64,000 nt of DNA from a virus. Lineage: Duplodnaviria > Heunggongvirae > Uroviricota > Caudoviricetes. Made by a program: the position numbers and the translations under genes. Position 1 is the stretch's first letter. Every line of letters begins with the position of its first letter. The notes under the pieces are model-generated. The model ran no database searches. It saw only the letters and a list, made by a program, of their open reading frames with translations, and was not told the DNA's origin. Below are positions 5,282-63,379 of this stretch, piece after piece. The stretch lies in the IMG/VR virus record IMGVR_UViG_3300022719_000283, positions 188,067 to 252,066 of that record; one strand, 5' to 3'.

Positions 5282-5284
5282 AGG

Positions 5285-6818: not shown

Positions 6819-6830
6819 CGTTTTGTCTCC

Positions 6831-7859: not shown

Positions 7860-7871
7860 TTTCTTTTCTCC

Positions 7872-8537: not shown

Positions 8538-8615
8538 CGTAAAAATTCCTCCGGTCCCGAGTAGGGCTCTCTCTGTATTGGAGTGCCCTATAGAGGGATA
8601 ACCGATAGAGCGTTA

Positions 8616-23835: not shown

Positions 23836-23876
23836 AGGCCGAAAACCACGAAAATGAGCCGTGCGCTCTGAGCGCC

Positions 23877-25280: not shown

Positions 25281-25429
25281 GATGCTGAACTCCAGTGAAC
25301 CTCTCTCAACCGCGCGGGAGAGAGGCTCGGAAAGGGTCTGGTTGTTCAGCAGCCGCGGCAGTGCGCGGACAGCTCCTTGTAACCCAAGACCCGAAGAAGT
25401 GCAAGCGGGGCTGCCGGTAAGGTGCATGC

Positions 25430-30828: not shown

Positions 30829-31121
30829 CCCACCTCCACCAACTTTTCACGAAAGGTCTTGCGGGTGATCGCGTTGTAATCCCGCCGTGTGCGCGTCATC
30901 GGCTCCAGAAGTTTAGCCGACAGCTTGCGGCGTCCCTCCGGTGTACGGAAGTACTCCGACATCAGCTTTTGATTTCGCTCTCTTTGAGTGAGCATCTTTC
31001 CGGAGCCTTTGCATAAGTCGCAAGGGCGCCGGGTGACCAGCAGTACGATCTCGCCTTGGCCCAGACAGTCAGGACATTCGGCCATGCCCTGACTATACCG
31101 GCCAATCAATACGGATGTCAC
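30825..31121 (-). CDS. DnaJ-type CxxCxGxG zinc-finger protein whose C-terminal 40 aa mimic the capsid-protein N-terminus
   Basis: CPDCLGQGEI...CDLCKGSGK is the DnaJ-type finger. KLMSEYFRTPEGRRKLSAKLLEPMTRTRRDYNAITRKTF has 22 of 38 residues identical to KLISEYIKTPTGRAKLAASLTQPLRTRRDYTSVGRKTF at the N-terminus of 60096-60974. Confidence 0.6.
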   Translation of the reverse strand: MTSVLIGRYSQGMAECPDCLGQGEIVLLVTRRPCDLCKGSGKMLTQRERNQKLMSEYFRTPEGRRKLSAKLLEPMTRTRRDYNAITRKTFREKLVEVG

Positions 31122-35426: not shown

Positions 35427-35504
35427 GGGACACCTTACCAGAGCGCGATCTTGGCGTCCTCACCAACGCGCCCCTAACGAGCCTATGCGTCACCCTTAGC
35501 GAAG

Positions 35505-36272
35505 ATGGTCGACTCCGAAAAGCTCCGCGTTCTCATCGCTGAGGACAACCCAGGGGATGTTGCAATCTTAGAGCATATTCTGGCGGGGTTGAATACAGAA
35601 TTGCGGCATACGAGATCGCTCAAGCAGCTCCGTGAAGACGGCCACATTTGGGACCCAGACGTGGTCCTGCTCGACCTTCATCTTGAGGACAGCCAGGACT
35701 TCATGGTGACGGCACGGACCGTAGTCAGTCTCTTCCCTACCATTCCCGTCATCGCCGTAACCGGGCTAGATGAAAAAGAGTTCGCCCTCCGAGCGCTTCA
35801 AGCAGGCATCTCCGCGTACCTGATCAAAGGCACGTTGTCAGGGTCTGATCTGATGAAACACATCCACGAGGCCATCGCGCGCAAGAAAGCTCAGTACCGA
35901 TCTCTTACCACAGCCGTCTCACAGGATGAACTACGCGCCATGGTCAAGGAGGCGGTGGAAGAAGCTCTGACCGATGAGCCTGAGCCCCCGACCTCAATGC
36001 GCACCGTGATCCTCGCCGTCTTGGCAATCCTTCTGTTGCTAGGGGGCACCGGTGCATGGGCCTATTTCCAGCTCGCCAAAATCGAAAAGCAACGCAAAGA
36101 GATCCATCGCAAGAGCTCCGAAGATCTTCGGGCCGAGAAGTTCCAAGAGTTCCAAGAGCTCCGTCAGGAGCATATGGACAACCGAAGGCAGTGGGAAACC
36201 GGTGGGGAAGTCGGTCCCAAGCCCAAGAAGCCACCTCGTCTTCTTCAACTCGAACAAGAACTTGCCCAGTAG
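35505..36272 (+). CDS. Response-regulator receiver-domain protein with C-terminal TM helix and coiled-coil
   Basis: RVLIAEDNPGDV...VVLLDLHL...YLIKG gives the receiver-domain Asp and Lys positions. ILAVLAILLLLGG is a TM segment, followed by a charged helical tail. Confidence 0.65.
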   Translation: MVDSEKLRVLIAEDNPGDVAILEHILAGLNTELRHTRSLKQLREDGHIWDPDVVLLDLHLEDSQDFMVTARTVVSLFPTIPVIAVTGLDEKEFALRALQAGISAYLIKGTLSGSDLMKHIHEAIARKKAQYRSLTTAVSQDELRAMVKEAVEEALTDEPEPPTSMRTVILAVLAILLLLGGTGAWAYFQLAKIEKQRKEIHRKSSEDLRAEKFQEFQELRQEHMDNRRQWETGGEVGPKPKKPPRLLQLEQELAQ

Positions 36273-36274
36273 CC

Positions 36275-37444
36275 ATGTCCGACCATTACCTCAAAGCTGA
36301 GCTCTATGATCGACTTAGCTCCGACCCCACCCTCTTCGAATGGCTTGAGGCCGGGAGCTTAGACGGTGTCTGGTTTCTCAACGTCGAAAACTTCATCGAC
36401 CAATGGTATTCGCCACGGTTCAAGAGACTTTTCGGCTACGAAGATCACGAGATCCCCAACACATTCCAGTGGTGGCAAGAAAACATCTTCCCCGAAGACA
36501 AACAACTTGCTCTGGACAGCTACTACAAACACCTCGAGAACCCCGAAAAGTTCCCCTACGACCAAATCGTCCGATACCGACACAAGAACGGCTCCACTGT
36601 CTGGGTTCGTTGTCGTGGGCTTGTTTTGAAGGAGAAAGGCAAGCCTGTGCGTATGCTAGGAGCCCACACCGACATCACTCCCATCAAGAAGGCTGAAATC
36701 GAAGCAGGCCAGCGAATTGAGGAACTTGAGACCCTGTCCGCTGCTCTTCAACGTTCCAACTACGAACTCGAGCAGTTCGCCTACCTAGCAAGCCACGATC
36801 TACAAGAACCACTGCGCATGGTGGCATCCTTCGCCAAGATGATCGACGACACGTATGGCGAAACGGGAGCCCCTCTTGATGAGCGTGGGCGCCAATGGCT
36901 CGGGTACCTGGTCGAAGGGGCAAGTCGGATGCAGATACTCATCAACAGCTTGCTCTCCTTGAGTCGGATCAAGGAACAGGTAGAGGAGATGGCATCCATC
37001 GACATGGAACAGATCATGGAAGAGATTGTCACCGATCTCGGTATCCGTATCATCGAGAAGAACGCCAAGATCCTCACCGGAGACCTACCGTCTTTTATGG
37101 GGGTACGCAGCCAAGTACGACAGGTGTTTCAAAACCTCATCTCTAATACACTTAAGTTCCATGGCGACAAGCCACCAGTGGTTCGCATCCGTGGGGACGA
37201 ACTCGATGATGGGATGGTGCGCTACACGGTTCATGATGAAGGCATCGGGATCCTCCCTTATGACGCGGGCAAGATCTTCGAGGCGTTCTATCGAGGGAAA
37301 GAAACGCAAGACATTTCGGGAAGTGGTATCGGGCTTTCCATTTGCAAAAAGATCGTCACATTACACGGCGGCACTATCCGATGCGAATCGGAACTCGGCG
37401 TGGGAACGACTTTCATCGTTACGTTCAAGGGAACAGGAAAATGA
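36275..37444 (+). CDS. Sensor histidine kinase (PAS - HisKA - HATPase_c)
   Basis: H-box LASHDLQEPLR. G-boxes HDEGIGI and GSGIGLSICKKIV. An N-terminal PAS-like segment. The start is set at the ATG just after the stop of the response-regulator gene, not at 36056 inside that gene. Confidence 0.8.
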   Translation: MSDHYLKAELYDRLSSDPTLFEWLEAGSLDGVWFLNVENFIDQWYSPRFKRLFGYEDHEIPNTFQWWQENIFPEDKQLALDSYYKHLENPEKFPYDQIVRYRHKNGSTVWVRCRGLVLKEKGKPVRMLGAHTDITPIKKAEIEAGQRIEELETLSAALQRSNYELEQFAYLASHDLQEPLRMVASFAKMIDDTYGETGAPLDERGRQWLGYLVEGASRMQILINSLLSLSRIKEQVEEMASIDMEQIMEEIVTDLGIRIIEKNAKILTGDLPSFMGVRSQVRQVFQNLISNTLKFHGDKPPVVRIRGDELDDGMVRYTVHDEGIGILPYDAGKIFEAFYRGKETQDISGSGIGLSICKKIVTLHGGTIRCESELGVGTTFIVTFKGTGK

Positions 37445-37860
37445 GACCACTGGAAATCTTACTCATCGAAGACAACGACGCCGACGTAGAGATCCTCCGC
37501 CACACCCTCGAACAGGAGAATGTGGTGCTGACGTTGTCTCGTGCCCGTGACGGGGATGAGGCGATAAGGTACCTGCGGAACAGTAACAACCCACGGCCCG
37601 ACCTCATTTTCTTGGACCTCAACATGCCGCACATGGACGGTCGTGAGGTACTAGGGGAGCTACGCGTAGATCCGAAGCTCGACCCTATCCCCGTGGTTGT
37701 CATGACCTCGAGCGAGGAAGAGAAAGACATCGTGCGCAGCTACAACCTCGGGGCCGCCGCCTACGTGGTCAAACCGCTCAAGCTCCAGGACATCGAAGAA
37801 GTCGTTCGCTCGATCAGCAAGTTCTGGCTGAGAGTCGTTCGATACCCCAACCGTAAGTGA
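37441..37860 (+). CDS. Single-domain (CheY-like) response regulator
   Basis: LLIEDNDADVEILR...LIFLDLNMP...PVVVMTSS...AYVVKP is a receiver domain. Its start shares ATGA with the kinase stop. Confidence 0.75.
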   Translation: MRPLEILLIEDNDADVEILRHTLEQENVVLTLSRARDGDEAIRYLRNSNNPRPDLIFLDLNMPHMDGREVLGELRVDPKLDPIPVVVMTSSEEEKDIVRSYNLGAAAYVVKPLKLQDIEEVVRSISKFWLRVVRYPNRK

Positions 37861-46870: not shown

Positions 46871-46931
46871 CCTTCTACCCCCCCTTTCCGGCGCTCTCCC
46901 GTATTTTCACGTTCCTCGCCCGTGCGGCACC

Positions 46932-49454: not shown

Positions 49455-49996
49455 AGTCTATCGTTCTACTCTTGCCACAGCTCTTCAGGACGCAAGGTGA
49501 CAACATAGCCCACAACCACTCCCCTATTGAATGCGCTCAACGGGCCTGATCGAGCTCCACGGTGGGCTCAAGTGATTTGAAGCTCTTGGGGGGAGGGGAA
49601 CAGCTCACGTCAGCACAATGGCCGCAGTGCTTGCGATGCCTCCTCGCTATGGCCGACGAGTCGGCGCGCGACCGAGGTCAGACTACGACGTCCCGGCCGA
49701 TGACGATGATCTGGCTGAAACACGTTGAAAGGCCGAGGTTCCCGCGACCCCATGTGGCCCAGCCGCCTCCCCAGAGCTCATGAGGCTCATTGTGGTAGTG
49801 CTCTGGGGTCTTGACAGACCCCATCGGCACGGGCTCGTGCATCGTAGGAAACCGCTGAGGACTCGTGATCGTTTCTCCGTGGCCAGACATCTCAGGGGTT
49901 TTACCCCCCGTGGGGATGCCCATGTCTTCCCCTTTCTCGGGGGTCCCGTCGGCCTGCGCTCCTGGCCGGCGAAGGAGGGCATCTCAGGGGCTCTAC

Positions 49997-51916: not shown

Positions 51917-52108
51917 TCACGAATCGAAACGCCCCTGCACCGCTCCACGAACCCAACGGAGGTATTCGCCGTGCTCCAGCTTCTTGAAGTGCTCGCAGTG
52001 TGGTTTCGTATGAACGACCACGATCGCCTCACCCTCCGGAGAACGTGGCATGACCACCGCGGTCCCCCCACATGGGCACTCGCCCGCCATGATTTCGTTG
52101 GCCTCCAC
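51917..52108 (-). CDS. Cys/His-rich small protein (63 aa)
   Basis: CPCGG...HTKPHCEHF. Immediately downstream of copy B of the conserved 47-nt upstream element. Confidence 0.4.
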   Translation of the reverse strand: MEANEIMAGECPCGGTAVVMPRSPEGEAIVVVHTKPHCEHFKKLEHGEYLRWVRGAVQGRFDS

Positions 52109-52301
52109 GACTGATTCTACCCCTTCGGAGGGCGCCCCCTCTTTTTACGTTCCTGGCCAGTCAGTACCGACGAATCCAGTGGCGAGGCAACAGGTCCTTG
52201 TATTGAAGCCACCGTCCGGGGTTGCTCCCTTCCTCGAGTTCGACGATGACAAGCCCCCATGAAGTGCGATTACGTCGCAGCAACCTTGTCATGGGTCAGT
52301 C

Positions 52302-52718
52302 TTACCGCAAATCCACTGAAACCGCAGAAACACGAACAAGACGTTCGTAGTTGCTCCGCAACAACGAAGGGTAGTCAGGTGAGGCCATCACTTCCGTGTA
52401 GCTCCTACCCAACGCCTCGTAGGCATAAGCATCTACGTCCCAACCCCGAGACTCCAATGCCTCAGCCGTTCGGTTGAAAAGAGCGTGCGCATTCCCTAAC
52501 CACGTGCCCTCTGGACACGCAAGAAGGAATCGAACAGGATCTTCTCCCTTTCCCACAACATCCACACAAGGACCCGCATCCTCCAACACCTCCTCGGCGT
52601 CGCCCGGACAGACGGGGCCTCCTCCACACTTCAGGCAAAACCTTGCCCAACCATCAGCGCGGTGCGAACAAGTGTCCTTGTGGTACAGACCGTCCCGGCG
52701 AAAAACGTAGTTTGCCAC
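52302..52718 (-). CDS. Cys-rich hypothetical protein (138 aa)
   Basis: CLKCGGGPVCPGD...CVD. Confidence 0.4.
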   Translation of the reverse strand: MANYVFRRDGLYHKDTCSHRADGWARFCLKCGGGPVCPGDAEEVLEDAGPCVDVVGKGEDPVRFLLACPEGTWLGNAHALFNRTAEALESRGWDVDAYAYEALGRSYTEVMASPDYPSLLRSNYERLVRVSAVSVDLR

Positions 52719-53049
52719 GGGAGCATCTTACCAAAATCGGAGTATCGGCGAGCGCCACCCTTGCGTCACACGTCTCTTTGGCCTCTGCCTCGGAGAAACA
52801 CACGCCCCCGACGAGCCACTCGTCGGACCCGTGCCAGCGCTCAGGCTCGCTGCCTTGGAAGGACACCGACCACGTCCAGTACTCCTCTTGCGGCGACCGC
52901 TCGTTCACGATCTTCTCGAGCTCGTGGCGCGGCTCACGAGGCGCCGAGTGGGCGACGTGCCACCTCCACTCGGGGTCAGGCCAGTACTCCCACTTCTCGA
53001 CGGTAGACACTCGAGGGTTGTCGACGACGGCGTGCTCCCACTCGGTCAT
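52654..53049 (-). CDS. Trp-rich hypothetical protein (131 aa)
   Basis: Preceded by GGGGTAGAAGGAGGGCCATG. Its C-terminal end overlaps the next gene. Confidence 0.4.
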   Translation of the reverse strand: MTEWEHAVVDNPRVSTVEKWEYWPDPEWRWHVAHSAPREPRHELEKIVNERSPQEEYWTWSVSFQGSEPERWHGSDEWLVGGVCFSEAEAKETCDARVALADTPILVRCSRGKLRFSPGRSVPQGHLFAPR

Positions 53050-53072
53050 GGCCCTCCTTCTACCCCAACCAA

Positions 53073-53108
53073 AGAGAAGACCCCGAGGCCGAAACCGCGG
53101 GGGTCTCT
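53073..53108 (-). terminator. Candidate intrinsic terminator after the 53118-53555 gene
   Basis: Imperfect 8-9-bp stem AGACCCCG / CGGGG(G)TCT with one bulge. On the minus strand it is followed by UUUGGUUGGGG. Confidence 0.3.
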
Positions 53109-53117
53109 CCCGTCAGG

Positions 53118-53555
53118 TCAGGCCGCACGGTAACTCCACCACGTCCGGTATTTGCAACCTGGACACTCCCACTGGTGCGCCACCTCGGGCCCCCTCGCCT
53201 GCACCTCCCCCGTGGAACGCACGGGACCCCCCGAGCAGCGTAGGCCGTCCTGACGGTACGGGCATTCCATCTCGTCGGGCTCCTCGTAGACGACCCGCAC
53301 GGTCTCGCCGACCAACCACCCCCTTGAACTTCGGTCCGGGTGCCAAGCGACCCACAGCGAGTCGTCCCCGGTCTTGCGCGTCACGGAGAAGTGGAACGGC
53401 ACCCCGTCACGACCGGCCCAGACGTAGGGCTTCTCGACGAGCTCACGGCCATCAACGAATACACGCAATGTGCCCCGTCGAGCAGGTCTCCGAGTCCAAA
53501 ATGGACCAGCACAGTGCGGCTCCCTCGGGGCCGGGAACGACTCAATCCTCAACAC
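53118..53555 (-). CDS. Cys-containing hypothetical protein (145 aa)
   Basis: ECPYRQ...CPGCK. Preceded by an element variant (GAAGGTGTAGAAGGAGGG). Confidence 0.4.
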   Translation of the reverse strand: MLRIESFPAPREPHCAGPFWTRRPARRGTLRVFVDGRELVEKPYVWAGRDGVPFHFSVTRKTGDDSLWVAWHPDRSSRGWLVGETVRVVYEEPDEMECPYRQDGLRCSGGPVRSTGEVQARGPEVAHQWECPGCKYRTWWSYRAA

Positions 53556-53635
53556 ACAGCCCTCCTTCTACACCTTCCTCGGGCGCCTTCAGTCCGCGCG
53601 TTCCTGAAACGCGGGACGGTTGGCCCCGTGCCGGC

Positions 53636-54076
53636 TCAGCACTCCGGACACCGAACCGACGAAATCATCCCGATGTTACCGGTGCCCCCACAGCGGCGAC
53701 ACGTCAGCGGCTTGCCCGCCCCGAACCTCCAAGACGAGCCGTCCCGGGCCACGAACACGATCTCCTCCGCGTCCAAATCGGCCTTTTTGAAAGCCATGAC
53801 CAGACGACCCCACAGAGTGGCTTGGAGACCTGCTCGGATGAGTTTCGCGTTACACTCGATGTCCAAAATGTCCCGGCTGAACTGCCTCAAGTCAGCGTAG
53901 GCAGCGGTACCCAACCCGAATACGTCCACATCCACGTTGTGGACGTGCTCGAGGTGATCCAGCACCTCCCCCAGGGGACCTGGGGAGAGAGGCCGGGGAA
54001 TGAAATCCATCCCCGGCACGACGAGAACACGATGCGACCCCTCCGTAATGATGTCCCTGGCTCGAGCGAGCTCCAC
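53636..54076 (-). CDS. Partial capsid-protein paralog fused to a C-terminal zinc ribbon
   Basis: YADLRQFSRDILDIECNAKLIRAGLQATLWG has 22 of 29 residues identical to YADIRKFGRDILDIESQATLLKTGLQATLWG in 60096-60974. The encoding DNA is also similar. Ends CRRCGGTGN...CPEC. Confidence 0.6.
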   Translation of the reverse strand: MELARARDIITEGSHRVLVVPGMDFIPRPLSPGPLGEVLDHLEHVHNVDVDVFGLGTAAYADLRQFSRDILDIECNAKLIRAGLQATLWGRLVMAFKKADLDAEEIVFVARDGSSWRFGAGKPLTCRRCGGTGNIGMISSVRCPEC

Positions 54077-54085
54077 GTTGCAACT

Positions 54086-54766
54086 CTACCCTTTCTGTTT
54101 CGGAGGGGCGTCCCACCCGAGGTGACGCTCACGCCACGCAGCACAGTCCTGAGAGTGCTCGCCCGCGAAGGCCGGAGGGCTCACCGACCCGCAGCCGTCG
54201 CACCGGAACGAGAAAACGAACGCACCCCGCTCGTCCTCTCCCGTCTTCACGACCGTGAAGTCGCCGCGACACAGACCTGGAACAACCCGGAACCTCGTGT
54301 CCAGGGTCGTTCGCACTGTCCTCGTCGCGGGACGGTCGGAGAAGTCTGGCAAGTCGATGTGCCAGCGCAGCAGGTAGGAGCCGACCGCGACCTCGTCCTT
54401 CGGAACCAGCAGAGAGGCGTAATACACGTCGTCCTCGTCGAGGACCGGGACGCGCTCCTCTGGACCGATAAGCCCGAGAACCCCGTGAGGCACTTCGCTC
54501 ACGTCCACGTAGTAGAGGCTGTACCGGACGCGCCTCGCGAGCGGAAAGTGGATCGCCAGGTCCCGACGCCCCAGCTCCTGCCCGAGGACGAAAGTGGAAT
54601 GGGCCCCCAGCGTCTCCATGAGCCGGTCGGGGGAGCGCTCGTCGCCAGGAGGGTCAAGAGGACACGGGACGTACAGCGGCCTCCCGCGGGCGATCCCAGG
54701 CACGAGGGCCACGGCTGCTCCGGCCCCGACGGTCTTCACGAAGGTGCGGCGGTCCATGACGCCCAT
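54086..54766 (-). CDS. Tat-signal (twin-arginine) secreted protein
   Basis: Start set at the internal MGVMDRRTFVKTVGAGAAVALVPGIARG, which gives an RRxFVK twin-arginine motif, a hydrophobic core and an AxA cleavage site. Copy A of the conserved upstream element lies immediately 5'. Confidence 0.55.
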   Translation of the reverse strand: MGVMDRRTFVKTVGAGAAVALVPGIARGRPLYVPCPLDPPGDERSPDRLMETLGAHSTFVLGQELGRRDLAIHFPLARRVRYSLYYVDVSEVPHGVLGLIGPEERVPVLDEDDVYYASLLVPKDEVAVGSYLLRWHIDLPDFSDRPATRTVRTTLDTRFRVVPGLCRGDFTVVKTGEDERGAFVFSFRCDGCGSVSPPAFAGEHSQDCAAWRERHLGWDAPPKQKG

Positions 54767-54938
54767 TCTACCCCTTCGGAGGGCGTCCCATCTTTTTACG
54801 TTCCTGGCCAGCGATCCTGCACCACCGGAACACCAGGACGGCTGGTCCCGTGCGCCTTTTATTTTAACACCACGGAACACAGGAGACTCGGTTCTATACC
54901 CCATCTCTCCTAATTCGTCGCGGGACATGCCGCAGCCG

Positions 54939-55598
54939 TCATCGACGACCGTGCGGCAGTAAACTCCCAATCCCAGTTTCCGCCTCCCACGCCTCGGAGA
55001 ACTCCCGGTCCCGGAACGCCTCAGCCAGCCCCGTGATCTGCTTGAGTCTAAGAACCTCATCCGGGTCCATCCCGAGCTCCTCGCTGATCCTCTCGTTGGT
55101 CCAGTGGTGCTTCGTCAGGGACGTGACGAGCTTCGCGCTGAGCTCGACTTGGTGCGTGCCTCGCGCCATGTTGTGGCGCACCGTGGAGGTCATGCGATCC
55201 TCGATCGACTTCTCCAGCTCCACCAGAGGCACATACCCGGCCAGGCTCTCCTGCACCTCCTCGCACGTCTGGATGACCGTGGTCCGGTGAAAACCGTCCA
55301 CGACGACATGCTTCTCGAGACCCTCGTCGTAGGCCGCCACCACGGGCATCGTCATTCCATCCTTCCGGATCGAGAACTCCAAGAGACGCATCTCCGGAGG
55401 AGCGACCACGTTGGGGTTGTAGTCGTTCCCCTTCACCTGGTCGGCCTTCACGAGTTTCACGCCGGTGACCGGGTGCGGGAGACCCAAGAAGTCCTTCATC
55501 GTCTGAGAGACCTCGTTGAAGATCTCCACACGCTCGTCCACGTTCAGGTCTCCGCACTCCTTGAGAAGGGCGCGAAGTTTCTCAGCTACGTTGCTCAT
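54939..55598 (-). CDS. ParB/Srx-like nuclease-domain protein (IbrB-like)
   Basis: DYNPNVVAPPE...VVVDGFHR resembles the ParB N-terminal domain (DGHHR/GxxR region). It is paired and slightly overlapping with a PAPS-reductase-like gene, as in IbrA/IbrB. Confidence 0.45.
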   Translation of the reverse strand: MSNVAEKLRALLKECGDLNVDERVEIFNEVSQTMKDFLGLPHPVTGVKLVKADQVKGNDYNPNVVAPPEMRLLEFSIRKDGMTMPVVAAYDEGLEKHVVVDGFHRTTVIQTCEEVQESLAGYVPLVELEKSIEDRMTSTVRHNMARGTHQVELSAKLVTSLTKHHWTNERISEELGMDPDEVLRLKQITGLAEAFRDREFSEAWEAETGIGSLLPHGRR

Positions 55599-56886
55599 GT
55601 TCCTCCGAGAAGCTCGCTATCAGGGCGAGCTGCCTGCTCATCTCACGCTTCGTTTGACTGAAACTCAAACCCTTTGCCCAGTAATCGTTCTTCAGAAGGA
55701 CCTTCACGATCCTGCGCCACGAGGGAACCTTCCTCTGAGACTCCATCTTGGGGTCCGCCTCATCGGGAATCGGCGGGTAGGAGACCCCCAGCTTCTTCTC
55801 GCCATTCGCGTACCACCACGCGAGGAACTTGTCGATCTTCTCGCGGTAGTGGGCGGCGAGATAGGGAGGCATCGTGTCCAGAAGGAAGTTGGCGTAGCTC
55901 TCGTAGGTGTGGCCGGGAGGAAGAGACACCTTGAAGTTGCCGAACACAGTACCTCTGGTCTTGCTGTACCGGCACCCGAAATTCGCCCCCTCGACACGCG
56001 TCACCACGCGAATCCACGTCTCCGGCTCGAGAAGTCGGAAAAGGTAGAGACCCTTGCGCTGGTCGTCTCCGTACGGCTGACACAGCCGCTGCTGCGAGAG
56101 GGGGACACCGGCGAGGTGCATGAGATCGTAGATCTCGTTGTAGTCCCACCCGAACTTTCCGTTGGCCGTCCAGACGTCCTCCGTCCTCCAGTCGTAGATG
56201 GGGAAGGCGGTGTAAGTGTCCCTCGTCTGCCGGGTGGTCCACGGGCGCCCTCCGAGCGTCTCCTTGCGATCGTTGATGAGCGTCCGGAACCGGTTGAGGC
56301 TCTCGTCGCTCCGGATGCCCACCAAGCAGCATGTCCTGCGCCCGTCGGCGATCCACTCCCCGAACTCCGGGACGAAGTCCTCGAACTCCATGCCCCTGTA
56401 GAAGAAAGGATAGTGCGTCTCGCTCGAGACGACCCCGGGAGCCTCGGGCATCGGCCGCACCCACGCGTCCTTCTTGTCCGGATTCCAGCACAGCCAGTGC
56501 GGTTGAACCTGGCTCACAGCATTGCGGAGGTGCAAGGGGAGACACACCCAGTGGGGGCGTACCTCGGGCCGGGCAAGTGTCCTCTCCACGTACCGGATGG
56601 TGTGGGCGTACTGGGCCTCGAGGTCCACAAGAAGCACGTCGAGGGGGAGCCGGCCGCGCTCCCGGGCAACCTCGACGGCGAGGTTGAGGAGAACCCCGGA
56701 GTCCTTTCCCCCGGAGAACGAGAGGTACACGTGCTCGAACTCATCGAACACCTCGTGCAGGCGCTCCACGGCCGCGTCGTAAACACTTTTCCCTAGCGGT
56801 CTCTTCGGCATCCTCCCACCTTGTACTCCGACGAAGAAAACACGAAGATTATGCCCCCCGCGTCCTCTTGAGCGCCGCACGCTCAC
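55582..56886 (-). CDS. PAPS-reductase / PP-loop ATPase-family protein (IbrA- or DndC-like)
   Basis: YLSFSGGKDSGVLLNL is the PP-loop SGGxDS. Followed by a long C-terminal extension typical of phage PAPS-reductase-like proteins. Confidence 0.7.
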   Translation of the reverse strand: MSVRRSRGRGGHNLRVFFVGVQGGRMPKRPLGKSVYDAAVERLHEVFDEFEHVYLSFSGGKDSGVLLNLAVEVARERGRLPLDVLLVDLEAQYAHTIRYVERTLARPEVRPHWVCLPLHLRNAVSQVQPHWLCWNPDKKDAWVRPMPEAPGVVSSETHYPFFYRGMEFEDFVPEFGEWIADGRRTCCLVGIRSDESLNRFRTLINDRKETLGGRPWTTRQTRDTYTAFPIYDWRTEDVWTANGKFGWDYNEIYDLMHLAGVPLSQQRLCQPYGDDQRKGLYLFRLLEPETWIRVVTRVEGANFGCRYSKTRGTVFGNFKVSLPPGHTYESYANFLLDTMPPYLAAHYREKIDKFLAWWYANGEKKLGVSYPPIPDEADPKMESQRKVPSWRRIVKVLLKNDYWAKGLSFSQTKREMSRQLALIASFSEEHEQRS

Positions 56887-58054
56887 TTTTGGAGATTGCA
56901 GTAATCCCGTACTTCTTTCGTCGAGACCGGATCGGCATTTTACTTACGCCGTAGAGGTCTCCGATCTCCGTGTCGGTGAGAAGCTCCTTTTGGTAGAGAC
57001 GGGCGAGCTCCTCCCCCGTCAAGGTCGAGAGCCGGAGACCTCCCTCCTGCCGCCGTTCTTTTCGTTCTTGATTAGAGACCGACGGGATGCCCCACTTCCT
57101 CCGAACACGCGCCACCGCAGCTCCATCGAAAGGAGGGTCTACACCCGCCTCCCGAGACAATAAAAGCGCAATTTCCCCGTCTGTCTTCAGTTCCCCTTCG
57201 TATAGGTCCCTGAGTAGGTCCGGGGTCAGCAAAGAAATGAGTTCTCCTCTGCGCGCACTGCCTCTTGCGGACCCGGGACGGCGAACCCCCAGCCGAGGCT
57301 GAGGCAGTTTAGCCCCCATGCAAACGGGCATGTGCTCTCGGACGAGAGCGAAAAAGCGATCATCTTGCCCAGAAAAGGTGAGGCTTTTAGCGCCATTGCC
57401 CGGGTGAACCGTTGCGCTCAGATCCAAAGCCTCAAGCGCCTCCAAAGCCCGCTCCAAACTAAGGTTATCGAGCCCGAAGGTGATCCTCGGGTAGTACCGG
57501 TTCATGATCCCCCCATCATCCATGTACCACACCGCAAGTACAAAGGGGTCTATGATCTCAGGCAGCGTAGCCGGAAACACACGATGCCCGGAGGTGTAAA
57601 AAAGATCGTAAAAAGGACGAAGCCTTGTTGTCGAAACCGTGGCAAAGTTCCAAGCGTGGAACTCCCGACCGTCCTCCCCTCGCTTCGTAGAAGGATAGCG
57701 CGACGAAACGTAAGGACCCAAGAGGTCCGCTTTCCAGTCCGTATACTCTCGCTGTTTTAGGGAGTGTCCCTCCGAAAAACGTGCGGTGGTCGGACTGGGG
57801 GCTGACATGCTCCCATCCCCCAAAAGGGACCCGATGATGAGGCTTCTCTGTCTTGACGAAAGCTCGTCAAGTTGCTTTTCAATCCGCCCCGTCTTACCCA
57901 AATTCTCCAGCCCGTGTCGCGCCTTGAACCGGTTCACAGCCACTTGGTAAGTCCCGTATCGCTCGGCGATCTGGGACTCTGTCAGGAGCTCATCGTAGTA
58001 AAGTCGTTGAAAGTCTTCGACCGTAAGGTCTTCAATAGGCACGGTGCCTATCAT
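56849..58054 (-). CDS. LAGLIDADG homing endonuclease (two motifs, monomeric type) with flanking HTH modules
   Basis: LIIGSLLGDGS and LAVWYMDDGG are the two LAGLIDADG motifs. HTH-like LYYDELLTESQIAERYG (N-terminus) and LYQKELLTDTEIGDLYG (C-terminus). Confidence 0.8.
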   Translation of the reverse strand: MIGTVPIEDLTVEDFQRLYYDELLTESQIAERYGTYQVAVNRFKARHGLENLGKTGRIEKQLDELSSRQRSLIIGSLLGDGSMSAPSPTTARFSEGHSLKQREYTDWKADLLGPYVSSRYPSTKRGEDGREFHAWNFATVSTTRLRPFYDLFYTSGHRVFPATLPEIIDPFVLAVWYMDDGGIMNRYYPRITFGLDNLSLERALEALEALDLSATVHPGNGAKSLTFSGQDDRFFALVREHMPVCMGAKLPQPRLGVRRPGSARGSARRGELISLLTPDLLRDLYEGELKTDGEIALLLSREAGVDPPFDGAAVARVRRKWGIPSVSNQERKERRQEGGLRLSTLTGEELARLYQKELLTDTEIGDLYGVSKMPIRSRRKKYGITAISKSERAALKRTRGA

Positions 58055-58096
58055 ACCCTATCTGAAAACATACGCAAACAGTCGGGTAGTTTCTTC

Positions 58097-59068
58097 TTAG
58101 GACTCATATTGCGGGTTTCCTTTGGCCCGGAGGTGCTCAATGCCATGCCTTCGAAGATGGCGGTCGATCGTCGAAGCCCCAACTCCAAGGATCTTCCCCA
58201 TACGTCGAAGAGGAACTCCGTCGGCCGCCAACTCACGCAGGGCAACTGGGTCTAGCCTTTCCTTGATCCGGTTGTTTCGACCACTGTTGTAGCCAAAACC
58301 GCTGAGTTTGTGTCTCATGCACTCGGGGACGTGAGGCGTGATGATTTCCAAGAAGCGACCGGCCGTGTCTTCCCTCTCCATGTGAAAAGCCCCAGTCTCA
58401 CGTCCGTCCTTCTCTTTAACAGGCTGCCACCTGGGGCTAAGTTTGAACCTTTCAAAGATGGCCCACGCGATCTTTCGGCTCTCGGCAGTCCCTCCGAACG
58501 TGATGTCTGGCCACCAGCAAACACACCCGTCATCGAGATACCAGAGGGCAAGAGCGAGATCGTCCACATGGTCCACGATCTCTGGAGACAGAATTTTCCA
58601 TCCCTTATATCGACTCTCGTAAAACAGGCGTTGCCACTTGTTGAGACTTGGATGGGCGACCGTGTTGAAGCGCCATGCTCGGTAGTTTTTACCCCTCACG
58701 GTCTTGTCATTGTACTGAGGCTCAGACTGAACCCAAGGACCCCACCTCCGCATCTTCCAGTCGAGGTAGGGTCTCTGCTCATCACTATGGCGCTCGGTGT
58801 AGTGGGTCGCGTTGGTGCGGTGGACGAGTCTCCCGTCGCCCAGCATAGAGCCCACAAGAAGGGACTTGAGGCACCCCTCAATGGGCGGTACGTCATGACG
58901 CTCCCACCTCTGAAGCGTGCGGATGCCAAAGCGCTTGCGCCACGTCCGGACGCGCTTGGCGGTAGTTTCCTTTCCGATGCGGACCGCGATCTCTTCGTCG
59001 GTGAGCTTCTCGACGAGATAAAGCTGCTCAAGTTCAGACTTGCTGACGGGACAGAGGATCGACCTCAC
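58097..59068 (-). CDS. LAGLIDADG homing endonuclease (second of three)
   Basis: LLVGSMLGDG and LALWYLDDG motifs. HTH-like modules at both ends. Confidence 0.8.
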   Translation of the reverse strand: MRSILCPVSKSELEQLYLVEKLTDEEIAVRIGKETTAKRVRTWRKRFGIRTLQRWERHDVPPIEGCLKSLLVGSMLGDGRLVHRTNATHYTERHSDEQRPYLDWKMRRWGPWVQSEPQYNDKTVRGKNYRAWRFNTVAHPSLNKWQRLFYESRYKGWKILSPEIVDHVDDLALALWYLDDGCVCWWPDITFGGTAESRKIAWAIFERFKLSPRWQPVKEKDGRETGAFHMEREDTAGRFLEIITPHVPECMRHKLSGFGYNSGRNNRIKERLDPVALRELAADGVPLRRMGKILGVGASTIDRHLRRHGIEHLRAKGNPQYES

Positions 59069-59081
59069 CGAAAAACGCTCC

Positions 59082-59963
59082 TTACACCTTAACCAGTTTG
59101 CGCCTCATTGAGGGAAGAATGTGGGGGGCCACGATCGGCCAGAACTTCTCAGGTTCCATCACTCGCAGGTGCCACTCCTTGGCATACCTCCTGGCCGAAA
59201 ACTCCAAACTGAAAATCTCAGACACCACAGGCGCGATAGGCTCAAGATCAATCTGAAGCCCCACATGAAACACAGCCGTGTTTCGGTTCTTTGAGCCATC
59301 GCCCATGTACCACACAGCGAGAGCCAGAGGAGTCAGCCTCTCCGCCGTCCGGGGAGTCAAAGTCTTGTGCCCCTTCCCACTCGGGTAAAACTCGCGCCGC
59401 CATGAGGAGAGCGCGCGACAGCTCCACGTTCCCATCGAGCAGACGCCAAGCTTCTCGAGTTCTCGCACCCTTGAGGTGAGAGGCGAAAACTCGCAAGCCT
59501 TCCACTCCACGAACTCCTTCTGAGCGGTCGAGTGTCCACAGTGGTAGTAAGCGCTGCGGTCCGAAGTTCCCCAAAGACCCCCATCCCCGAACATCTCGCC
59601 GAGCAGTACCTCCTCTTGACGACCCGTGAGGCGGTAACCTGCAACCCACTCCGGAGGCGACGGACGATATTCCGGCCACTGGTACCCATTGCGACGCAGG
59701 AGACGTGCTACCGAGGTGCGGTTGATTCCCATGTCGCTGGCAACAGCGGTCATGGTCTCGCCGTTTTCTAGACGCCTCACGATCTGGATGCACTGGTCCG
59801 GATCGAGTCCCTTCTTGTTCGTCTTCGACGGGATACCATGTCTCCTGCGCCACTCTCGGAGACGACTACGACCTACTCGGAGCATCCTCGCCACCTCGTA
59901 GTCGTTGAACCCCTCCACGAGGAACATGTGACGCAGTTGATCGTCGTCGAGTTCGACGCTCAC
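59082..59963 (-). CDS. LAGLIDADG homing endonuclease (third of three)
   Basis: LLGEMFGDGGL and LAVWYMGDGS motifs. N-terminal HTH-like modules. Confidence 0.8.
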   Translation of the reverse strand: MSVELDDDQLRHMFLVEGFNDYEVARMLRVGRSRLREWRRRHGIPSKTNKKGLDPDQCIQIVRRLENGETMTAVASDMGINRTSVARLLRRNGYQWPEYRPSPPEWVAGYRLTGRQEEVLLGEMFGDGGLWGTSDRSAYYHCGHSTAQKEFVEWKACEFSPLTSRVRELEKLGVCSMGTWSCRALSSWRREFYPSGKGHKTLTPRTAERLTPLALAVWYMGDGSKNRNTAVFHVGLQIDLEPIAPVVSEIFSLEFSARRYAKEWHLRVMEPEKFWPIVAPHILPSMRRKLVKV

Positions 59964-60095: not shown

Positions 60096-60974
60096 CTAAC
60101 GGGTGACGGTGAGGCGCGTGAGGCCGCGGGGGTTGTAAGCCCCGATGCCGAGGTTCTCGAAGACCGAGAACCCGATGGTGCGCGCCTTGGGATCGTCCGC
60201 GGACAGGACCGTGAGCTCCGTGCGAACAGGGATGCGGCCAAACATCTCTGGCTCGCAGCACACGTAGACCGTGCCGGCGGGCACGATGCGGCTCGTGATG
60301 ACCTGGGCACCCCAGAGGGTAGCCTGAAGGCCGGTCTTGAGCAGCGTCGCCTGGCTCTCGATGTCCAGGATGTCCCGACCGAACTTGCGGATGTCGGCGT
60401 AGTCCCTGGCATTCATGTACACGCGCGCGACCCGGAGGTCGTGGCGCTCGATGAGAGCGAAGGCGTCGGCCAGCACAGCACCCGAGATCGGAGCGACCAC
60501 GGGAATGTCCGGGTTGAGACCACCGGGCAACGAATCGAAGCCGTTGGTGGCGATGGCATCCAGAACAGCGAAGACACGCTCGTCCTCGGCGGCCTGGATC
60601 TGCGCACGGGCAAGATCCTGGGCACGCTCGATGAGGTCGAAACGACGCTCCTTGATCTGGGTGAGCGGGATCTCGGGGTTCGAGGCAATCTCGAACAGCG
60701 GGAAGATCACACGACGCGGCTTGGTGACCGCGATGATGTTCTCGCCCTCTTCACCGACCACGTAGGCGGTGACATCGGGATCCTTGTCGTAGATCGGCAG
60801 GGCACCATCGGGAAGCTGCTCGACCAAGAAGGTCTTGCGGCCAACCGAAGTGTAGTCCCGTCGAGTACGAAGGGGTTGGGTGAGAGAAGCTGCGAGCTTG
60901 GCACGACCGGTTGGGGTCTTGATGTACTCGGAGATCAGCTTCTGCTTGACTGCGTTGGAAACACCAGTGGGCAT
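60096..60974 (-). CDS. HK97-fold major-capsid-protein-like (292 aa)
   Basis: Position: downstream of an acidic scaffold-like gene and a decoration-like gene. Size and composition fit. A conserved ILDIE...GLQATLWG region is present. No search was run, so the call is moderate. Confidence 0.5.
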   Translation of the reverse strand: MPTGVSNAVKQKLISEYIKTPTGRAKLAASLTQPLRTRRDYTSVGRKTFLVEQLPDGALPIYDKDPDVTAYVVGEEGENIIAVTKPRRVIFPLFEIASNPEIPLTQIKERRFDLIERAQDLARAQIQAAEDERVFAVLDAIATNGFDSLPGGLNPDIPVVAPISGAVLADAFALIERHDLRVARVYMNARDYADIRKFGRDILDIESQATLLKTGLQATLWGAQVITSRIVPAGTVYVCCEPEMFGRIPVRTELTVLSADDPKARTIGFSVFENLGIGAYNPRGLTRLTVTR

Positions 60975-60990: not shown

Positions 60991-61650
60991 CTAGACGCGC
61001 TGGTCGTAGACCAACTCGAACTGCTCCGAGTCGGGCGGCATCTTCAGGATAGCCAGCAGGGTTGAGGCAGCATTGCCGTTGGCCACTTCGGACGCGATGG
61101 TTGCGGTGTCCAGGGAGATCGCAGCACCGGTCTGGGTGGTGACTCGCATCATCAGGTAGCCATTGCGCGAGGCGATGAGCTCCTGACCAGCCGTGTAGAT
61201 GAGGTCGTCGCCAGCGGCGATCGCACCTGCGGCGTCGAGGGCTTGCGTCTCGAACAAGGCGTTCCCATACGTGCCCTGACCGGACATGTAGGGACCCTTA
61301 CCGGAAGCGGGTCCCGGCTGGTTTTCGAAGGCGTTGCCCACGGCGGTGTTGATGAAACATCCCAGAGGACGGATCAGAATGTTGTCGGGCGCGCCGGGTT
61401 CGACGGGTCCACCAACAAAGTTTGATCCTTGGTCGGGACGGGTGAAGGCGACGGAACCGCTCAGGACACCGGAAACACCGGTGTTGGTCTGAGTCGAAAC
61501 CGTCCCCGCGGTCGTGACGATGGGCGGGTTGGTCTGCGTGAAGGCATCCGCGGTCAGAACACCGACCGTGTTGCGCACTCCAGGGTGCAGGAGTCGAAGG
61601 GCTGAGGAGCTCTCCGTAAACCCACCACTCGCCTGTCCAAGTAGAGGCAT
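60991..61650 (-). CDS. Capsid decoration / auxiliary structural protein candidate (219 aa)
   Basis: Sits between the scaffold-like and capsid-like genes. Gly/Thr/Ala-rich. Confidence 0.4.
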   Translation of the reverse strand: MPLLGQASGGFTESSSALRLLHPGVRNTVGVLTADAFTQTNPPIVTTAGTVSTQTNTGVSGVLSGSVAFTRPDQGSNFVGGPVEPGAPDNILIRPLGCFINTAVGNAFENQPGPASGKGPYMSGQGTYGNALFETQALDAAGAIAAGDDLIYTAGQELIASRNGYLMMRVTTQTGAAISLDTATIASEVANGNAASTLLAILKMPPDSEQFELVYDQRV

Positions 61651-61840: not shown

Positions 61841-63379
61841 TCAACGAGTCGGGGTGACTCCGAAGACCGACGAAACGTCGGGAGCGGACGCCCACAGTTT
61901 CGAGAGTTGGTCCATCTCATCGCCCGCGACCTTGGTCTGAGGAGCGACGTTGCCGAGACGCTGAGCGCCTTGGCTGGCGGCCTTCTGCTGAGGCTTGAGC
62001 TCGATGTTCTCGTCTCCAGCCTTCTTCTTGCCGCTCTCCTTCTCCTTGGGCGACTCTTCTTCACCCTCTTCCTTCGACTTCTCCTCGAGCTCTTCCATCT
62101 CCTCGAGAACGTCGCCGCCACCGATATCCTCGTCCTTGTCGGACTCGGCATCCTGGTCGTCAGCGCCAGTCTTGGGAAGATCGAGGTCCGCATAGAGCTT
62201 CATGAGCTCATCATCGGCGGAAGCCTCCTTCTCAACGAGGCTCAGAGGATCCTCCTCACCAGCAGTGAGTTGGATGTCGTTCTCCGCGGCTCCAGTGTCT
62301 TCGGCCTTCTTGCCATGAGGAGTGGGGTCGGCTTCCTTGTCCGAACCGTCACTCTGCGCGACGACGGGGGTAGGGGCGTATTCGTCGGGATTGACGTTGC
62401 CACCCTCGCCGCTTTGGATGGTAGGTCCCTTGGCGAGGTCCTCGGTGACGTCCTCGACTTCCGAAGCGCCCTTGGACATCTCCTCGTCCATCTCGTCGAG
62501 CATGGCCTTGAGCATGGCCTCTTCCTCGTCGTCCTCCTGGGCCATCTTGTCGCCTTCGGCCTCGTCGTACTCCTTGGTACCTTCCGACTCCTCACCGCGA
62601 TCGAACTCATCCTGCTCTTCGGATTGCTTGTCGCCGTAGCCGTAGTCGGGGGCATTTTGATCGACGCCATCGCCGTCCATGTCTTCGGCCATGAGGTACG
62701 CCATGAGCTCGTTGTCGCTCATGTCTTCCTCATCCCCCTCCCCGCCGAAAAAATGGGTCATAGCCTTGACCAGCTTGTTCATGCCGGACTCGAGCTTGTC
62801 GAGGCGGGCCGTGATCTCGTGGCTGGCCTTCTTGCCTCCCTCGATCTCGACTTCCTCTTCCTCTTCCTCTTCTTCTTCCTCGCCAGCGAGGACCTTGAGG
62901 GTGTTGGCGGTAGCGGAAAGCTGAGCGTCGTCGAGATCCATCAGCTCGAGGGCCTTGTTCTCGACAGCACCCGCATCAGCGCCGGGCATGAGGGCAGAAG
63001 CGATCCGCACGCAGAGGGTTGCGCGCTGTTCGGCCATCTCTTTGAGACTGGCCTGCTTCTTTCCACCACCGCCGCCTTGATCCATCGCCTCCTCGGGGCT
63101 CTCCGGGTCCTTTTGGAACTCGGAGGTAGCCGGGTGAGTGAGTTTGTCCGTCGTCAGGTTGCCGGGCATGGCCGGGGGAGGGGACTCCTCCGACATCGGC
63201 TTGTGGGGGTCCTCCGCCCAAGCGGAGGTGTCACCCTTCTCGTACTTGTCCTGATTGGGATCTTCGTAGTACGCCGGGTGGCTGGGCCCCTCGGTGCGAT
63301 CGACGGCCGGAACTTGAGGCGGCGGGGAAGCCGTCTTGTCCTGCTCGGCCTGCTTCCAAGTCTTGCGTTGACGTGCCAT
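61841..63379 (-). CDS. Very acidic scaffold-like protein (512 aa) with an E10 run
   Basis: Extremely D/E-rich with an EEEEEEEEEE tract. Sits upstream of the capsid module. Confidence 0.5.
   Translation of the reverse strand: MARQRKTWKQAEQDKTASPPPQVPAVDRTEGPSHPAYYEDPNQDKYEKGDTSAWAEDPHKPMSEESPPPAMPGNLTTDKLTHPATSEFQKDPESPEEAMDQGGGGGKKQASLKEMAEQRATLCVRIASALMPGADAGAVENKALELMDLDDAQLSATANTLKVLAGEEEEEEEEEEVEIEGGKKASHEITARLDKLESGMNKLVKAMTHFFGGEGDEEDMSDNELMAYLMAEDMDGDGVDQNAPDYGYGDKQSEEQDEFDRGEESEGTKEYDEAEGDKMAQEDDEEEAMLKAMLDEMDEEMSKGASEVEDVTEDLAKGPTIQSGEGGNVNPDEYAPTPVVAQSDGSDKEADPTPHGKKAEDTGAAENDIQLTAGEEDPLSLVEKEASADDELMKLYADLDLPKTGADDQDAESDKDEDIGGGDVLEEMEELEEKSKEEGEEESPKEKESGKKKAGDENIELKPQQKAASQGAQRLGNVAPQTKVAGDEMDQLSKLWASAPDVSSVFGVTPTR

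Follow-up and report, generated by a model that had tools for sequence, protein, structure and literature searches.

A stand-alone HK97 A-domain with an added zinc hairpin, very probably a selected partial duplicate of the major capsid protein in a phage-G-like huge phage

A stretch of phage DNA of 64,000 nucleotides (nt), referred to here as the window (IMG/VR record IMGVR_UViG_3300022719_000283, positions 188,067 to 252,066), encodes a major capsid protein (MCP) of the HK97 type and, about 6 kb from it, a small open reading frame, ORF-A, of 146 amino acids (aa). Very probably, ORF-A is a functional gene under selection and an old partial duplicate of the phage's own HK97 MCP, from which the N-arm, E-loop and P-domain have been removed and to which a C-terminal DnaJ-type zinc centre has been added, and it belongs to a large accessory family of mini-MCPs in phage-G-like huge phages. 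Both reading frames lie where an earlier note on this DNA had placed them, with the qualification that both are on the minus strand. The features compared are as follows.

53636 to 54076, minus strand: ORF-A, 146 aa, GTG start, stop codon included; predicted stand-alone HK97 A-domain plus zinc hairpin
53702 to 54076, minus strand: ORF-A residues 1-125; predicted A-domain of the HK97 fold with the end of the spine helix before it
53807 to 53899, minus strand: ORF-A residues 60-90, the best-kept motif in common with the MCP, YADLRQFSRDILDIECNAKLIRAGLQATLWG; 22 of 31 aa identical
53639 to 53701, minus strand: C-terminal DnaJ-type zinc hairpin, CRRCGGTG-x9-CPEC, residues 126-146, CRRCGGTGNIGMISSVRCPEC
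60096 to 60974, minus strand: MCP, the parental gene, 292 aa, full-length HK97 fold of the phage G gp27 type
60240 to 60617, minus strand: MCP residues ~120-245, the part with a counterpart in ORF-A; A-domain with the end of the spine helix

In a BLASTP comparison with composition-based statistics, ORF-A residues 29-94 align with MCP residues 162-226 at 44% identity over 66 aa (E=9e-15), and the shared segment is not of low complexity. This bears out the description of ORF-A in the earlier note as a diverged partial copy of the capsid gene joined to a zinc ribbon, the latter being the C-terminal hairpin listed above. A tblastn search of the whole window with ORF-A returned only ORF-A itself and the MCP gene, the latter at E=1.6e-12, and a hidden Markov model (HMM) search likewise placed the module in these two genes only. 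The core of about 30 residues (53807-53899 against MCP 60309-60401) was confirmed, although its identity is 71% and not the "about 75%" first estimated. Relatedness of the underlying DNA can be detected but is weak: identity is 69% in the 93-nt core, falls to 59% when all 65 aligned codons are counted, and reaches 86% in a stretch of 29 nt. Codon positions 1, 2 and 3 are 60, 71 and 46% identical. Since the third positions are near saturation, the duplication is old and the amino-acid sequence is what has been kept.

Several observations indicate that ORF-A is maintained as a gene. Its full-length relatives P0002 (146 aa) and P0003 (149 aa) are 75-77% identical to it, and among the three close sequences the ratio of nonsynonymous to synonymous substitution rates (dN/dS, Nei-Gojobori) is 0.20-0.24 at dS 0.69-1.0. 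The reading frame is intact, with conserved start and end in the window and in contigs L002 and L004; the same start is found in four diverged contigs, and a sequence resembling a ribosome-binding site, GGGTAGAG, lies upstream of the GTG. Neither relaxed selection nor a broken reading frame, as expected of a pseudogene or remnant, was found. Across 86 family members, R64, G83 and G90 of ORF-A are nearly invariant. A further relative, P0004 (184 aa, 38-40% identical), retains the capsid-like part and has a different C-terminus. A protein 99% identical to ORF-A is encoded on a contig of 618,736 bp, which makes a huge phage the very probable source of the window. A megablast comparison of the 52-62 kb region of the window with annotated phages gave no match. 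The plus-strand reading frame that overlaps ORF-A (52643-54913) was set aside as an antisense artefact of high G+C.

The extent of the copied region was clarified by profile and structure comparisons. A model of ORF-A built from the 86-sequence alignment of the wider family reached a mean pLDDT (predicted local distance difference test) of 88.2 and a pTM (predicted template-modelling score) of 0.81; residues 1-125 are confidently placed and the zinc hairpin is poorly defined. A model from four close sequences only was uninformative (pLDDT 39.8). Foldseek matches of the family-based model were mostly capsid proteins, with T4 gp24 (1yue) as the top match in the PDB, and each structure comparison aligned about 100 residues. 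The helices and sheet of the A-domain are present in the model; the N-arm, the E-loop and the P-domain strands are not. In a MAFFT alignment, 'ELARA' of ORF-A falls on 'DLARA' at MCP 120-124, in the end of the spine helix, and BLAST alignments with other MCPs of the clade are longer and start at ORF-A residues 2-8. The HMM match to the MCP covers positions 145-313 of the stop-to-stop reading frame. The copied part is consequently the end of the spine helix and the A-domain, MCP ~120-245, and not the C-terminal region of the capsid protein as the earlier note had it; nor is the homology confined to about 30 residues with a weaker part upstream, as it extends over ORF-A residues 1-125. ORF-A thus has an A-domain homologous to that of HK97 MCPs and, aligning only to MCP ~120-245, does not have the complete lattice-forming fold (phrog_2522, PF05065, PF25209). 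By the predicted structure, it is a complete stand-alone A-domain rather than a 30-residue motif. Small, uncharacterised and unannotated proteins of similar fold were also found in BFVD in the cultured jumbo phages Erwinia Y3, Pseudomonas Noxifer and Achromobacter Motura, and given these proteins, stand-alone A-domains may be a broader phenomenon than this clade.

The identity of the parental gene is firm. The protein encoded at 60096-60974 matches phrog_2522, 'major head protein', at E=5e-50, and aligns over nearly its full length with PDB entry 6wkk chain A (phage G gp27 MCP with gp26 decoration proteins) at E=4e-62; the MCP of phage G is gp27 (PMC12484599). It has 2083 database homologues, many of them named HK97 family MCP and many on contigs of 200-520 kb, and the top 120 are at least 90% identical to it, all in agreement with its original assignment as a capsid protein. 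Annotated phages that carry this MCP family include phage G (gp27, 38.6% identity), Tunturiibacter phage Tunturi_5 (48.8%) and cluster-C-like mycobacteriophages. Directly upstream of the MCP gene lie a 219-aa protein (60991-61650, minus strand), a decoration-protein candidate by position that is conserved in LR745208 (L001:4823-5509), and a strongly acidic 512-aa protein that contains a poly-Glu run (61841-63379, minus strand), a scaffold candidate by position. Neither matches any family, and for the 219-aa protein a comparison with PDB chains, phage G gp26 among them, found no similar sequence.

The C-terminus of ORF-A reads C126-R-R-C-G-G-T-G133...R142-C-P-E-C146. In an alignment of the ribbon subfamily (n=7: ORF-A, P0002, P0003, P0127, P0131, P0139 and P0141; 24-77% identity to ORF-A), residues C126, C129, G131, G133, I135, G136, R142, C143, P144 and C146 are invariant. 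The best Pfam resemblances of the ribbon are to DnaJ_CXXCXGXG and Anti-TRAP (PF15777), both below the curated cut-offs. Against DnaJ_CXXCXGXG (gathering threshold 32.7 bits), the ribbon of ORF-A scores 15.7 bits and a second protein of the window, ORF-B, described below, 22.3 bits; against Anti-TRAP (threshold 32 bits), ORF-A, P0131, P0139 and P0141 score 10.9-15.5 bits, short of membership. Like the cysteine-rich domain of DnaJ (PF00684), ORF-A and ORF-B have CxxCxGxG followed 9-10 residues on by CxxC(xGxG), namely C126-G133 with C143-C146 in ORF-A and C16-G23 with C34-G41 in ORF-B. Unlike that domain, which has four repeats and two zinc centres, ORF-A has one centre and ORF-B one hairpin with two motifs, and the window encodes no J-domain (HPD motif), whether in ORF-A, ORF-B or elsewhere. 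A pattern scan of metagenome contigs for the ribbon motif returned only a bacterial GrpE-DnaJ operon (L012) with a true DnaJ (repeats 2-3: CPRCKGTGSI...RPCPEC), to which ORF-A residues 95-146 are 39% identical by tblastn (E=3e-6 among the candidate stretches). A search of viral contigs for the ribbon subfamily returned nothing. The ribbon of ORF-A resembles one DnaJ zinc centre and is not a member of the family.

A different piece of the MCP has been joined to the same kind of zinc motif elsewhere in the window.

30825 to 31121, minus strand: ORF-B, 98 aa; two CxxCxGxG motifs (residues 16-41), then a copy of the MCP N-arm
30852 to 30971, minus strand: ORF-B residues 51-90, the N-arm copy (MCP residues 11-49, window 60828-60944); 25 of 39 aa identical

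A tblastn search of the window with the MCP matched MCP 11-49 to 30971-30852 at 62.5% identity (E=1e-10), and ORF-B matches the MCP N-arm by BLASTP at E=1e-14. The N-terminus of ORF-B reads CPDCLGQG-x10-CDLCKGSG and matches DnaJ_CXXCXGXG at E=1.6e-4, below threshold. The two N-arm sequences are 63% identical in nucleotides, with codon positions 1, 2 and 3 at 69, 82 and 38%; the low identity of the third positions indicates an old duplication in which the protein sequence was retained. ORF-B was called as a gene on the independent assembly L005, and the only homologue found was that of the same phage in this other assembly. It overlaps the start of a downstream gene of 179 aa, with which it is probably translationally coupled. 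A count over all six frames of the 64-kb window gives three occurrences of CxxCxGxG, against ~0.56 expected from composition, and all three are in ORF-A and ORF-B. The chance that the two genes with MCP fragments would also be the two with CxxCxGxG is 2-6e-4, assuming 60-100 genes. Two different pieces of the MCP have each been fused to the same zinc motif, and this association is specific.

ORF-A is one of many proteins of its kind. A search of 1.84 billion cluster representatives with a profile of the ORF-A family (E<=1e-3) returned 132 proteins: 115 small A-domain-only clusters, defined at 50% identity, 4 full-length MCPs, 8 possible contig-truncated MCPs and 5 proteins of more than 600 aa. 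The last two classes are left out of the family count. Among the largest proteins, the giant repeat proteins P0129, P0134, P0248 and P0250 were judged spurious repeat matches; P0162 (771 aa) was also set aside, yet the module is present near its N-terminus. Proteins of the small clusters are 172 aa long at the median and ~43% identical to the MCP of the window over MCP 162-238, and for 105 of the 115 the MCP type of the window is the closest of four reference MCPs. The common module is P(L/I)S..LADAF..(I/V)E...RV...MNARDYAD(L/I)RKFGRD(I/V)LDIE...LLK.GL.A.LWGA. Some members keep the last A-domain strand of the MCP ('...VTR') and yet lack exactly the P-domain hairpin, as in P0136, where ...GEPE-linker-NPEAVAILHVTRP stands against ...CEPEMFGRIPVRTELTVLSADDPKARTIGFSVFENLGIGAYNPRGLTRLTVTR in the MCP.

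The module occurs in several architectures. Besides the zinc-ribbon subfamily, there are proteins with an N-terminal 'FFECHPAEAR' domain and a C-terminal coiled coil and proteins with another C-terminal Cys cluster; P0128 and P0156 have tandem double modules within one protein, P0240 joins a helix-turn-helix (HTH)-like N-terminus to the module, and in P0167 a GIY-YIG nuclease domain is fused to it (Pfam E=3.6e-6). ORF-A itself matches no Pfam or PHROG family at normal thresholds, MCP families included, and for the members tested the MCP PHROG (phrog_2522) was the only significant family-level match. Neither Pfam nor PHROG has a family that describes an A-domain with a zinc ribbon, in keeping with the remark in the earlier note that this is not a standard phage feature. 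The family is large and undescribed, with about 115 clusters in huge phages.

The small paralogues also resemble the MCP of their own genome. A scan of genome assemblies with a 14-sequence alignment found eleven loci in metagenome-assembled genomes (MAGs) of scattered phyla, 10 of them MCPs of this clade and one a small paralogue (L022). The latter lies on the same 155-kb contig (JAKQDD010000211.1) as a full MCP (L021), ~80 kb away. The L021 MCP is divergent, being 60-68% identical to the others, and is the best BLAST match of the L022 paralogue. It reads YADLRKFGREILDFDT...GILGTIYGA, and the paralogue YADLRKFGREVLDFET...GALVKVYGA. The two have the derived states GRE, LDF and YGA in common; GRE and LDF were found in no other clade MCP examined, and the Tyr of YGA also occurs in L019. 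Similarly, ORF-A carries the exact GLQATLWG variant of its own MCP. Such matching in sequence would show the pattern expected of a mimic or of a binding partner of the cognate MCP. The MAG loci (L013-L023) carry the labels of Nitrospirae, Altiarchaeales, Actinomycetota, Legionellales, candidate phyla radiation (CPR) lineages, Anaerolineaceae, Methylobacter and Verrucomicrobiota, with G+C contents from 33% to 67%; these contigs are probably mis-binned huge-phage contigs, and the labels are not to be taken as hosts.

Stand-alone HK97 A-domains were previously known only as a small archaeal group, the Family 4 'A-domain encapsulins', and a viral case had not been described. The Family 4 proteins are cellular proteins of ~100 aa and consist of the HK97 A-domain alone (DUF1884, PF0899, structure 2PK8); they are encoded in two-gene operons, downstream of hydrogenase, OsmC, GAPDH or DeoC, in hyperthermophilic Euryarchaeota and in a small number of Bacteroidetes (Andreas & Giessen 2021, PMC8346489). 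What they do is still a matter of speculation; the P. furiosus protein forms a complex with GAPDH (PMC8346489). ORF-A resembles them in having an HK97 fold truncated to the A-domain. In contrast to them, it is encoded by a phage alongside the full-length parental MCP, carries a zinc hairpin and is not accompanied by any of these enzymes, its neighbours being phage genes of unassigned function, IbrA/IbrB-like genes and homing endonucleases. Structurally, ORF-A is nearer to phage MCPs than to Family 4 encapsulins. DUF1884 was not listed for ORF-A at E<=10, nor among the first 25 of 65 families listed for the 86 members at E<=1; as ORF-A falls outside DUF1884, it represents an independent, viral truncation.

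The phage G gp27-type MCP (6wkk; phrog_2522) is homologous to ORF-A residues 1-125 over its A-domain and the end of its spine helix. It differs from ORF-A in possessing the N-arm, E-loop and P-domain, which the interlocking lattice requires, in having no zinc hairpin and in being universal, where ORF-A is accessory. T4 gp24 and the capsid-redirecting MCP homologues of satellites are, like ORF-A, paralogues or homologues of HK97 MCPs kept for a specialised role in capsid assembly; they are complete HK97 folds that enter the lattice, whereas ORF-A is a single excised domain. BSD2-type plant assembly chaperones are DnaJ-like proteins that consist of the zinc finger only. Together with Anti-TRAP, BSD2 provides a precedent for small zinc-finger proteins that bind one specific oligomeric partner.

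The surroundings of ORF-A in the window contain further small genes with Cys-rich segments.

54086 to 54766, minus strand: ORF-X, upstream of ORF-A with a 7-nt gap; start inferred from the upstream element and ATG
54766 to 54809, minus strand: upstream element (GGCCAGGAACGTAAAAAGA-GGGxCGCCC-N4-AAGGGGTAGAA), ~45 nt, directly before the start of ORF-X
53118 to 53555, minus strand: Cys/His ORF (...ECPYRQDGLRC...ECPGC)
52302 to 52718, minus strand: Cys/His ORF (CLKCGGGPVCPG)
51917 to 52108, minus strand: Cys/His ORF (CPCGG...HCEH)

ORF-X is a partial paralogue of the N-terminal domain of a 302-aa protein encoded at 4373-5281 on the minus strand (BLASTP E=3e-15); searches of Pfam, PHROG and the PDB with the 302-aa protein gave nothing. 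The C-terminal segment of ORF-X is Cys-rich (CDGCGS...H..DC), and ORF-X shows a weak Tat-signal-like N-terminus and a weak match to DUF7848. ORF-X and ORF-A are likely co-transcribed, and ORF-X may be a third gene that combines a piece of a protein with a Cys motif. The upstream element contains an 8-bp palindrome, GGGCGCCC, and is repeated exactly at 52115-52158 and in diverged form at 49925-49972 and 46898-46920, all on the minus strand and before small genes. It also precedes start codons in L002 (1163-1228) and L003 (1284-1342), and no copy was found before the MCP gene. The element is a probable promoter, operator or 5' leader of the ORF-X/ORF-A unit and of like genes. The Cys/His ORFs run from 51917 to 53555 and, with ORF-X and ORF-A, form an array of small putative zinc proteins; none of them has a Pfam or PHROG match.

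Between the MCP gene and an IbrA-like gene are three consecutive free-standing LAGLIDADG homing endonuclease genes (56849-59963, minus strand). The window also encodes an 809-aa multi-domain homing endonuclease (1879-4308) and an endonuclease VII/HNH-like protein (15990-17354), both on the minus strand, and in LR745208 the MCP gene is followed by a 1229-aa protein (L001:6600-10289) with LAGLIDADG-like repeats by eye. The MCP gene, which is very conserved, has the look of a homing hotspot. In L002, the ORF-A homologue has a homologue of one of the three LAGLIDADG genes 0.9 kb upstream of it. A general tie between the A-domain family and homing endonucleases was considered and rejected; such proximity was seen in the window, in L002 and in the one GIY-YIG fusion, and not in L006-L011 or L022. 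The IbrA/IbrB-like pair (54939-56886, minus strand), a PAPS reductase with DUF3440 (phrog_2302, E=6e-92) and a ParB-like protein (phrog_2159, E=2e-63), separates the endonucleases from the ORF-X/ORF-A unit; the corresponding place in L002 has no such pair.

The neighbours of ORF-A homologues differ between contigs, and those of family members include DUF4942, DUF1653 and thymidine kinase. L009 has two module genes in tandem. In L011, a DnaG-type zinc ribbon is found near the small A-domain paralogue P0130, and both an RF-1-domain protein and a phage type I-C CRISPR-Cas operon (Cas5d, Csd1, Cas7 and ResIII helicase; L011:12134-18127) are at most 2 kb from it. On the L022 contig (JAKQDD010000211.1), a phage-encoded J-domain protein (Pfam DnaJ, E=1e-14) lies 3 kb upstream of the small paralogue and an HD_4 protein directly upstream (neighbour coordinates 1996-3000 and 4939-5715). 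A J-domain partner was found near L022 only, with none in the window or at the other loci, and a link to Hsp70 is anecdotal. Elsewhere in the window, there are paralogue sets of unassigned role, namely three adjacent genes at about 6144-8612 (minus strand), two large related proteins at about 18191-24003 (minus strand; 33% identity over 295 aa) and a pair at about 35478-37860 (plus strand). An RtcB RNA ligase is also encoded (23877-25427, minus strand; Pfam E=1e-92).

For the function of ORF-A, we tentatively favour the reading that it is a subunit mimic that docks on unassembled MCP. The A-domain is the part of the MCP that packs around the 5- and 6-fold axes in pentons and hexons, and the surface that was kept is on this ground taken to be the working surface. 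ORF-A would present the capsomer-forming face and dock on the free MCP of its own phage through the native contact between A-domains. Without the P-domain and E-loop, it would not propagate the lattice and would instead cap or hold MCP monomers and partial capsomers, so that premature self-association of the MCP is kept in check. The zinc hairpin could stabilise the excised domain or add a holdase surface like that of the DnaJ cysteine-rich domain, and ORF-B could play an equivalent role at the binding site of the N-arm. The published bacterial sensors of MCPs contact the A-domain, P-domain and E-loop and read the A-domain face of MCP monomers (bioRxiv 10.64898/2026.01.04.697583); the same face would be covered by ORF-A as well, as by a shield. 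A contact centred on the MCP is favoured by the fusion of the N-arm, by the zinc module common to both genes and by a same-strand location downstream of the MCP, and because the published sensors contact other parts of the protein, the N-arm copy fits a mimic of an assembly contact better than a mimic of a sensor epitope. Several observations weigh against such a role. The complete or long annotated relatives LR745208 (MCP 91% identical), Tunturi_5 and phage G each gave a single tblastn match, the MCP, and a small paralogue absent from complete relatives is not essential to the making of this capsid. At the loci whose context was recovered, family members are located in tight arrays of small genes or among non-structural genes, outside head modules; their varied N- and C-terminal fusions (coiled coils, HTH, GIY-YIG, Cys clusters) are more like those of conflict or accessory genes than of morphogenesis genes; and the diverged ribbon members P0131, P0139 and P0141 have lost the MCP-like YADLRKFGRDILDIE motif. 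Furthermore, the co-variation of paralogue and MCP is known from just two genome pairs, a number that does not allow statistics, and could also have arisen through patchy gene conversion.

Some of these points fit another explanation, possible but doubtful, in which ORF-A is an immune decoy that occupies host sensors of the MCP (Avs7, Avs8, Avs10 and Dsr1-type) without triggering their oligomerisation, as it lacks the P-domain and E-loop, and so protects a phage whose MCP has little room to mutate. With the top 120 homologues of the clade MCP at 90% identity or above, mutational escape would be costly; the small family is diverse, patchy and multi-copy in some genomes, as in the tandem pair of L009; its setting among accessory small genes, once beside a phage CRISPR-Cas operon, is typical of counter-defence genes; and each paralogue matches the motif variant of its own MCP, as a mimic must. 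However, no such decoy has been described before and none is mentioned in the preprint on these sensors (bioRxiv 10.64898/2026.01.04.697583), an isolated A-domain might activate a sensor instead of blocking it, and sensors that read the A-domain leave the N-arm fusion of ORF-B unexplained. The docking and decoy readings converge in the shield version, since an MCP face that is covered is also hidden from sensors. It is unlikely that the A-domain fold is merely an exapted scaffold, reused through its variable extensions for binding unrelated to the capsid. Non-capsid proteins with only an A-domain do exist, as the Family 4 encapsulins and their GAPDH complex show (PMC8346489), and the highly varied fusions (GIY-YIG, HTH, coiled coils, Cys clusters), the non-structural contexts, the diverged ribbon members without the MCP-like motif and the small proteins of similar fold in the unrelated jumbo phages Erwinia Y3, Noxifer and Motura would all suit such reuse. 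Against this, most members keep YADLRKFGRD(I/V)LDIE...GL.A.LWGA far beyond the needs of the fold, 105 of the 115 clusters track the MCP of this clade, and the parallel fusion of N-arm and zinc motif suggests a function centred on the MCP.

A further and quite improbable alternative is a weapon between phages, a dominant-negative fragment that poisons the capsomers of co-infecting huge phages or satellites and thereby excludes superinfection at the stage of assembly. Satellites redirect or hijack assembly with MCP homologues such as Ccm of the phage-inducible chromosomal islands (PICI), the accessory and patchy distribution and fast diversification of the family are in line with conflict, and the retained domain makes contacts within the capsomer. 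Yet the phage's own MCP has the same motif, so self-poisoning would be expected, and the MCPs of the clade, mostly 74-99% identical, leave little room to discriminate. Least probable by far is that ORF-A is a non-functional remnant left by recombination, illegitimate or driven by a homing endonuclease, in which a portion of the MCP gene was copied beside a zinc-ribbon ORF. The three LAGLIDADG genes between the MCP and ORF-A, the endonuclease near the L002 homologue and the one GIY-YIG fusion lend this some plausibility, and the earlier note had raised it; it is refuted by the purifying selection (dN/dS 0.20-0.24), by a ribbon whose residues are invariant at 24-37% identity, its zinc ligands down to 24%, and by the age of the duplication, with third positions against the MCP near saturation. 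The intact frame with the same start in four diverged contigs, the confident predicted fold and the lack of a nearby endonuclease at most other family loci also speak against it, and, with dS at 0.7-1.0, a recent origin of the relatives by copying of a single sequence is excluded.

Whatever their role, genes of this family at present receive either no annotation or a misleading partial match to 'major head protein'. The capsid of phage G has been reported as T=52, and in very large capsids hundreds of MCP copies have to be kept from misassembly. The face retained in ORF-A builds pentons and hexons and, according to the 2026 preprint, is also read by several bacterial immune receptors, so that the family offers a handle both on the control of misassembly and on the escape of phages with immutable structural proteins from protein-sensing immunity. 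It is conceivable, though we regard it with considerable doubt, that phage-G-like huge phages carry a diversified arsenal of excised MCP pieces (mini-MCPs and the N-arm copy, some of them zinc-locked) that defeat Avs7/8/10 and Dsr1-type receptors as decoys or shields. If true, this would be the first case of structural-protein self-mimicry as a phage counter-defence.

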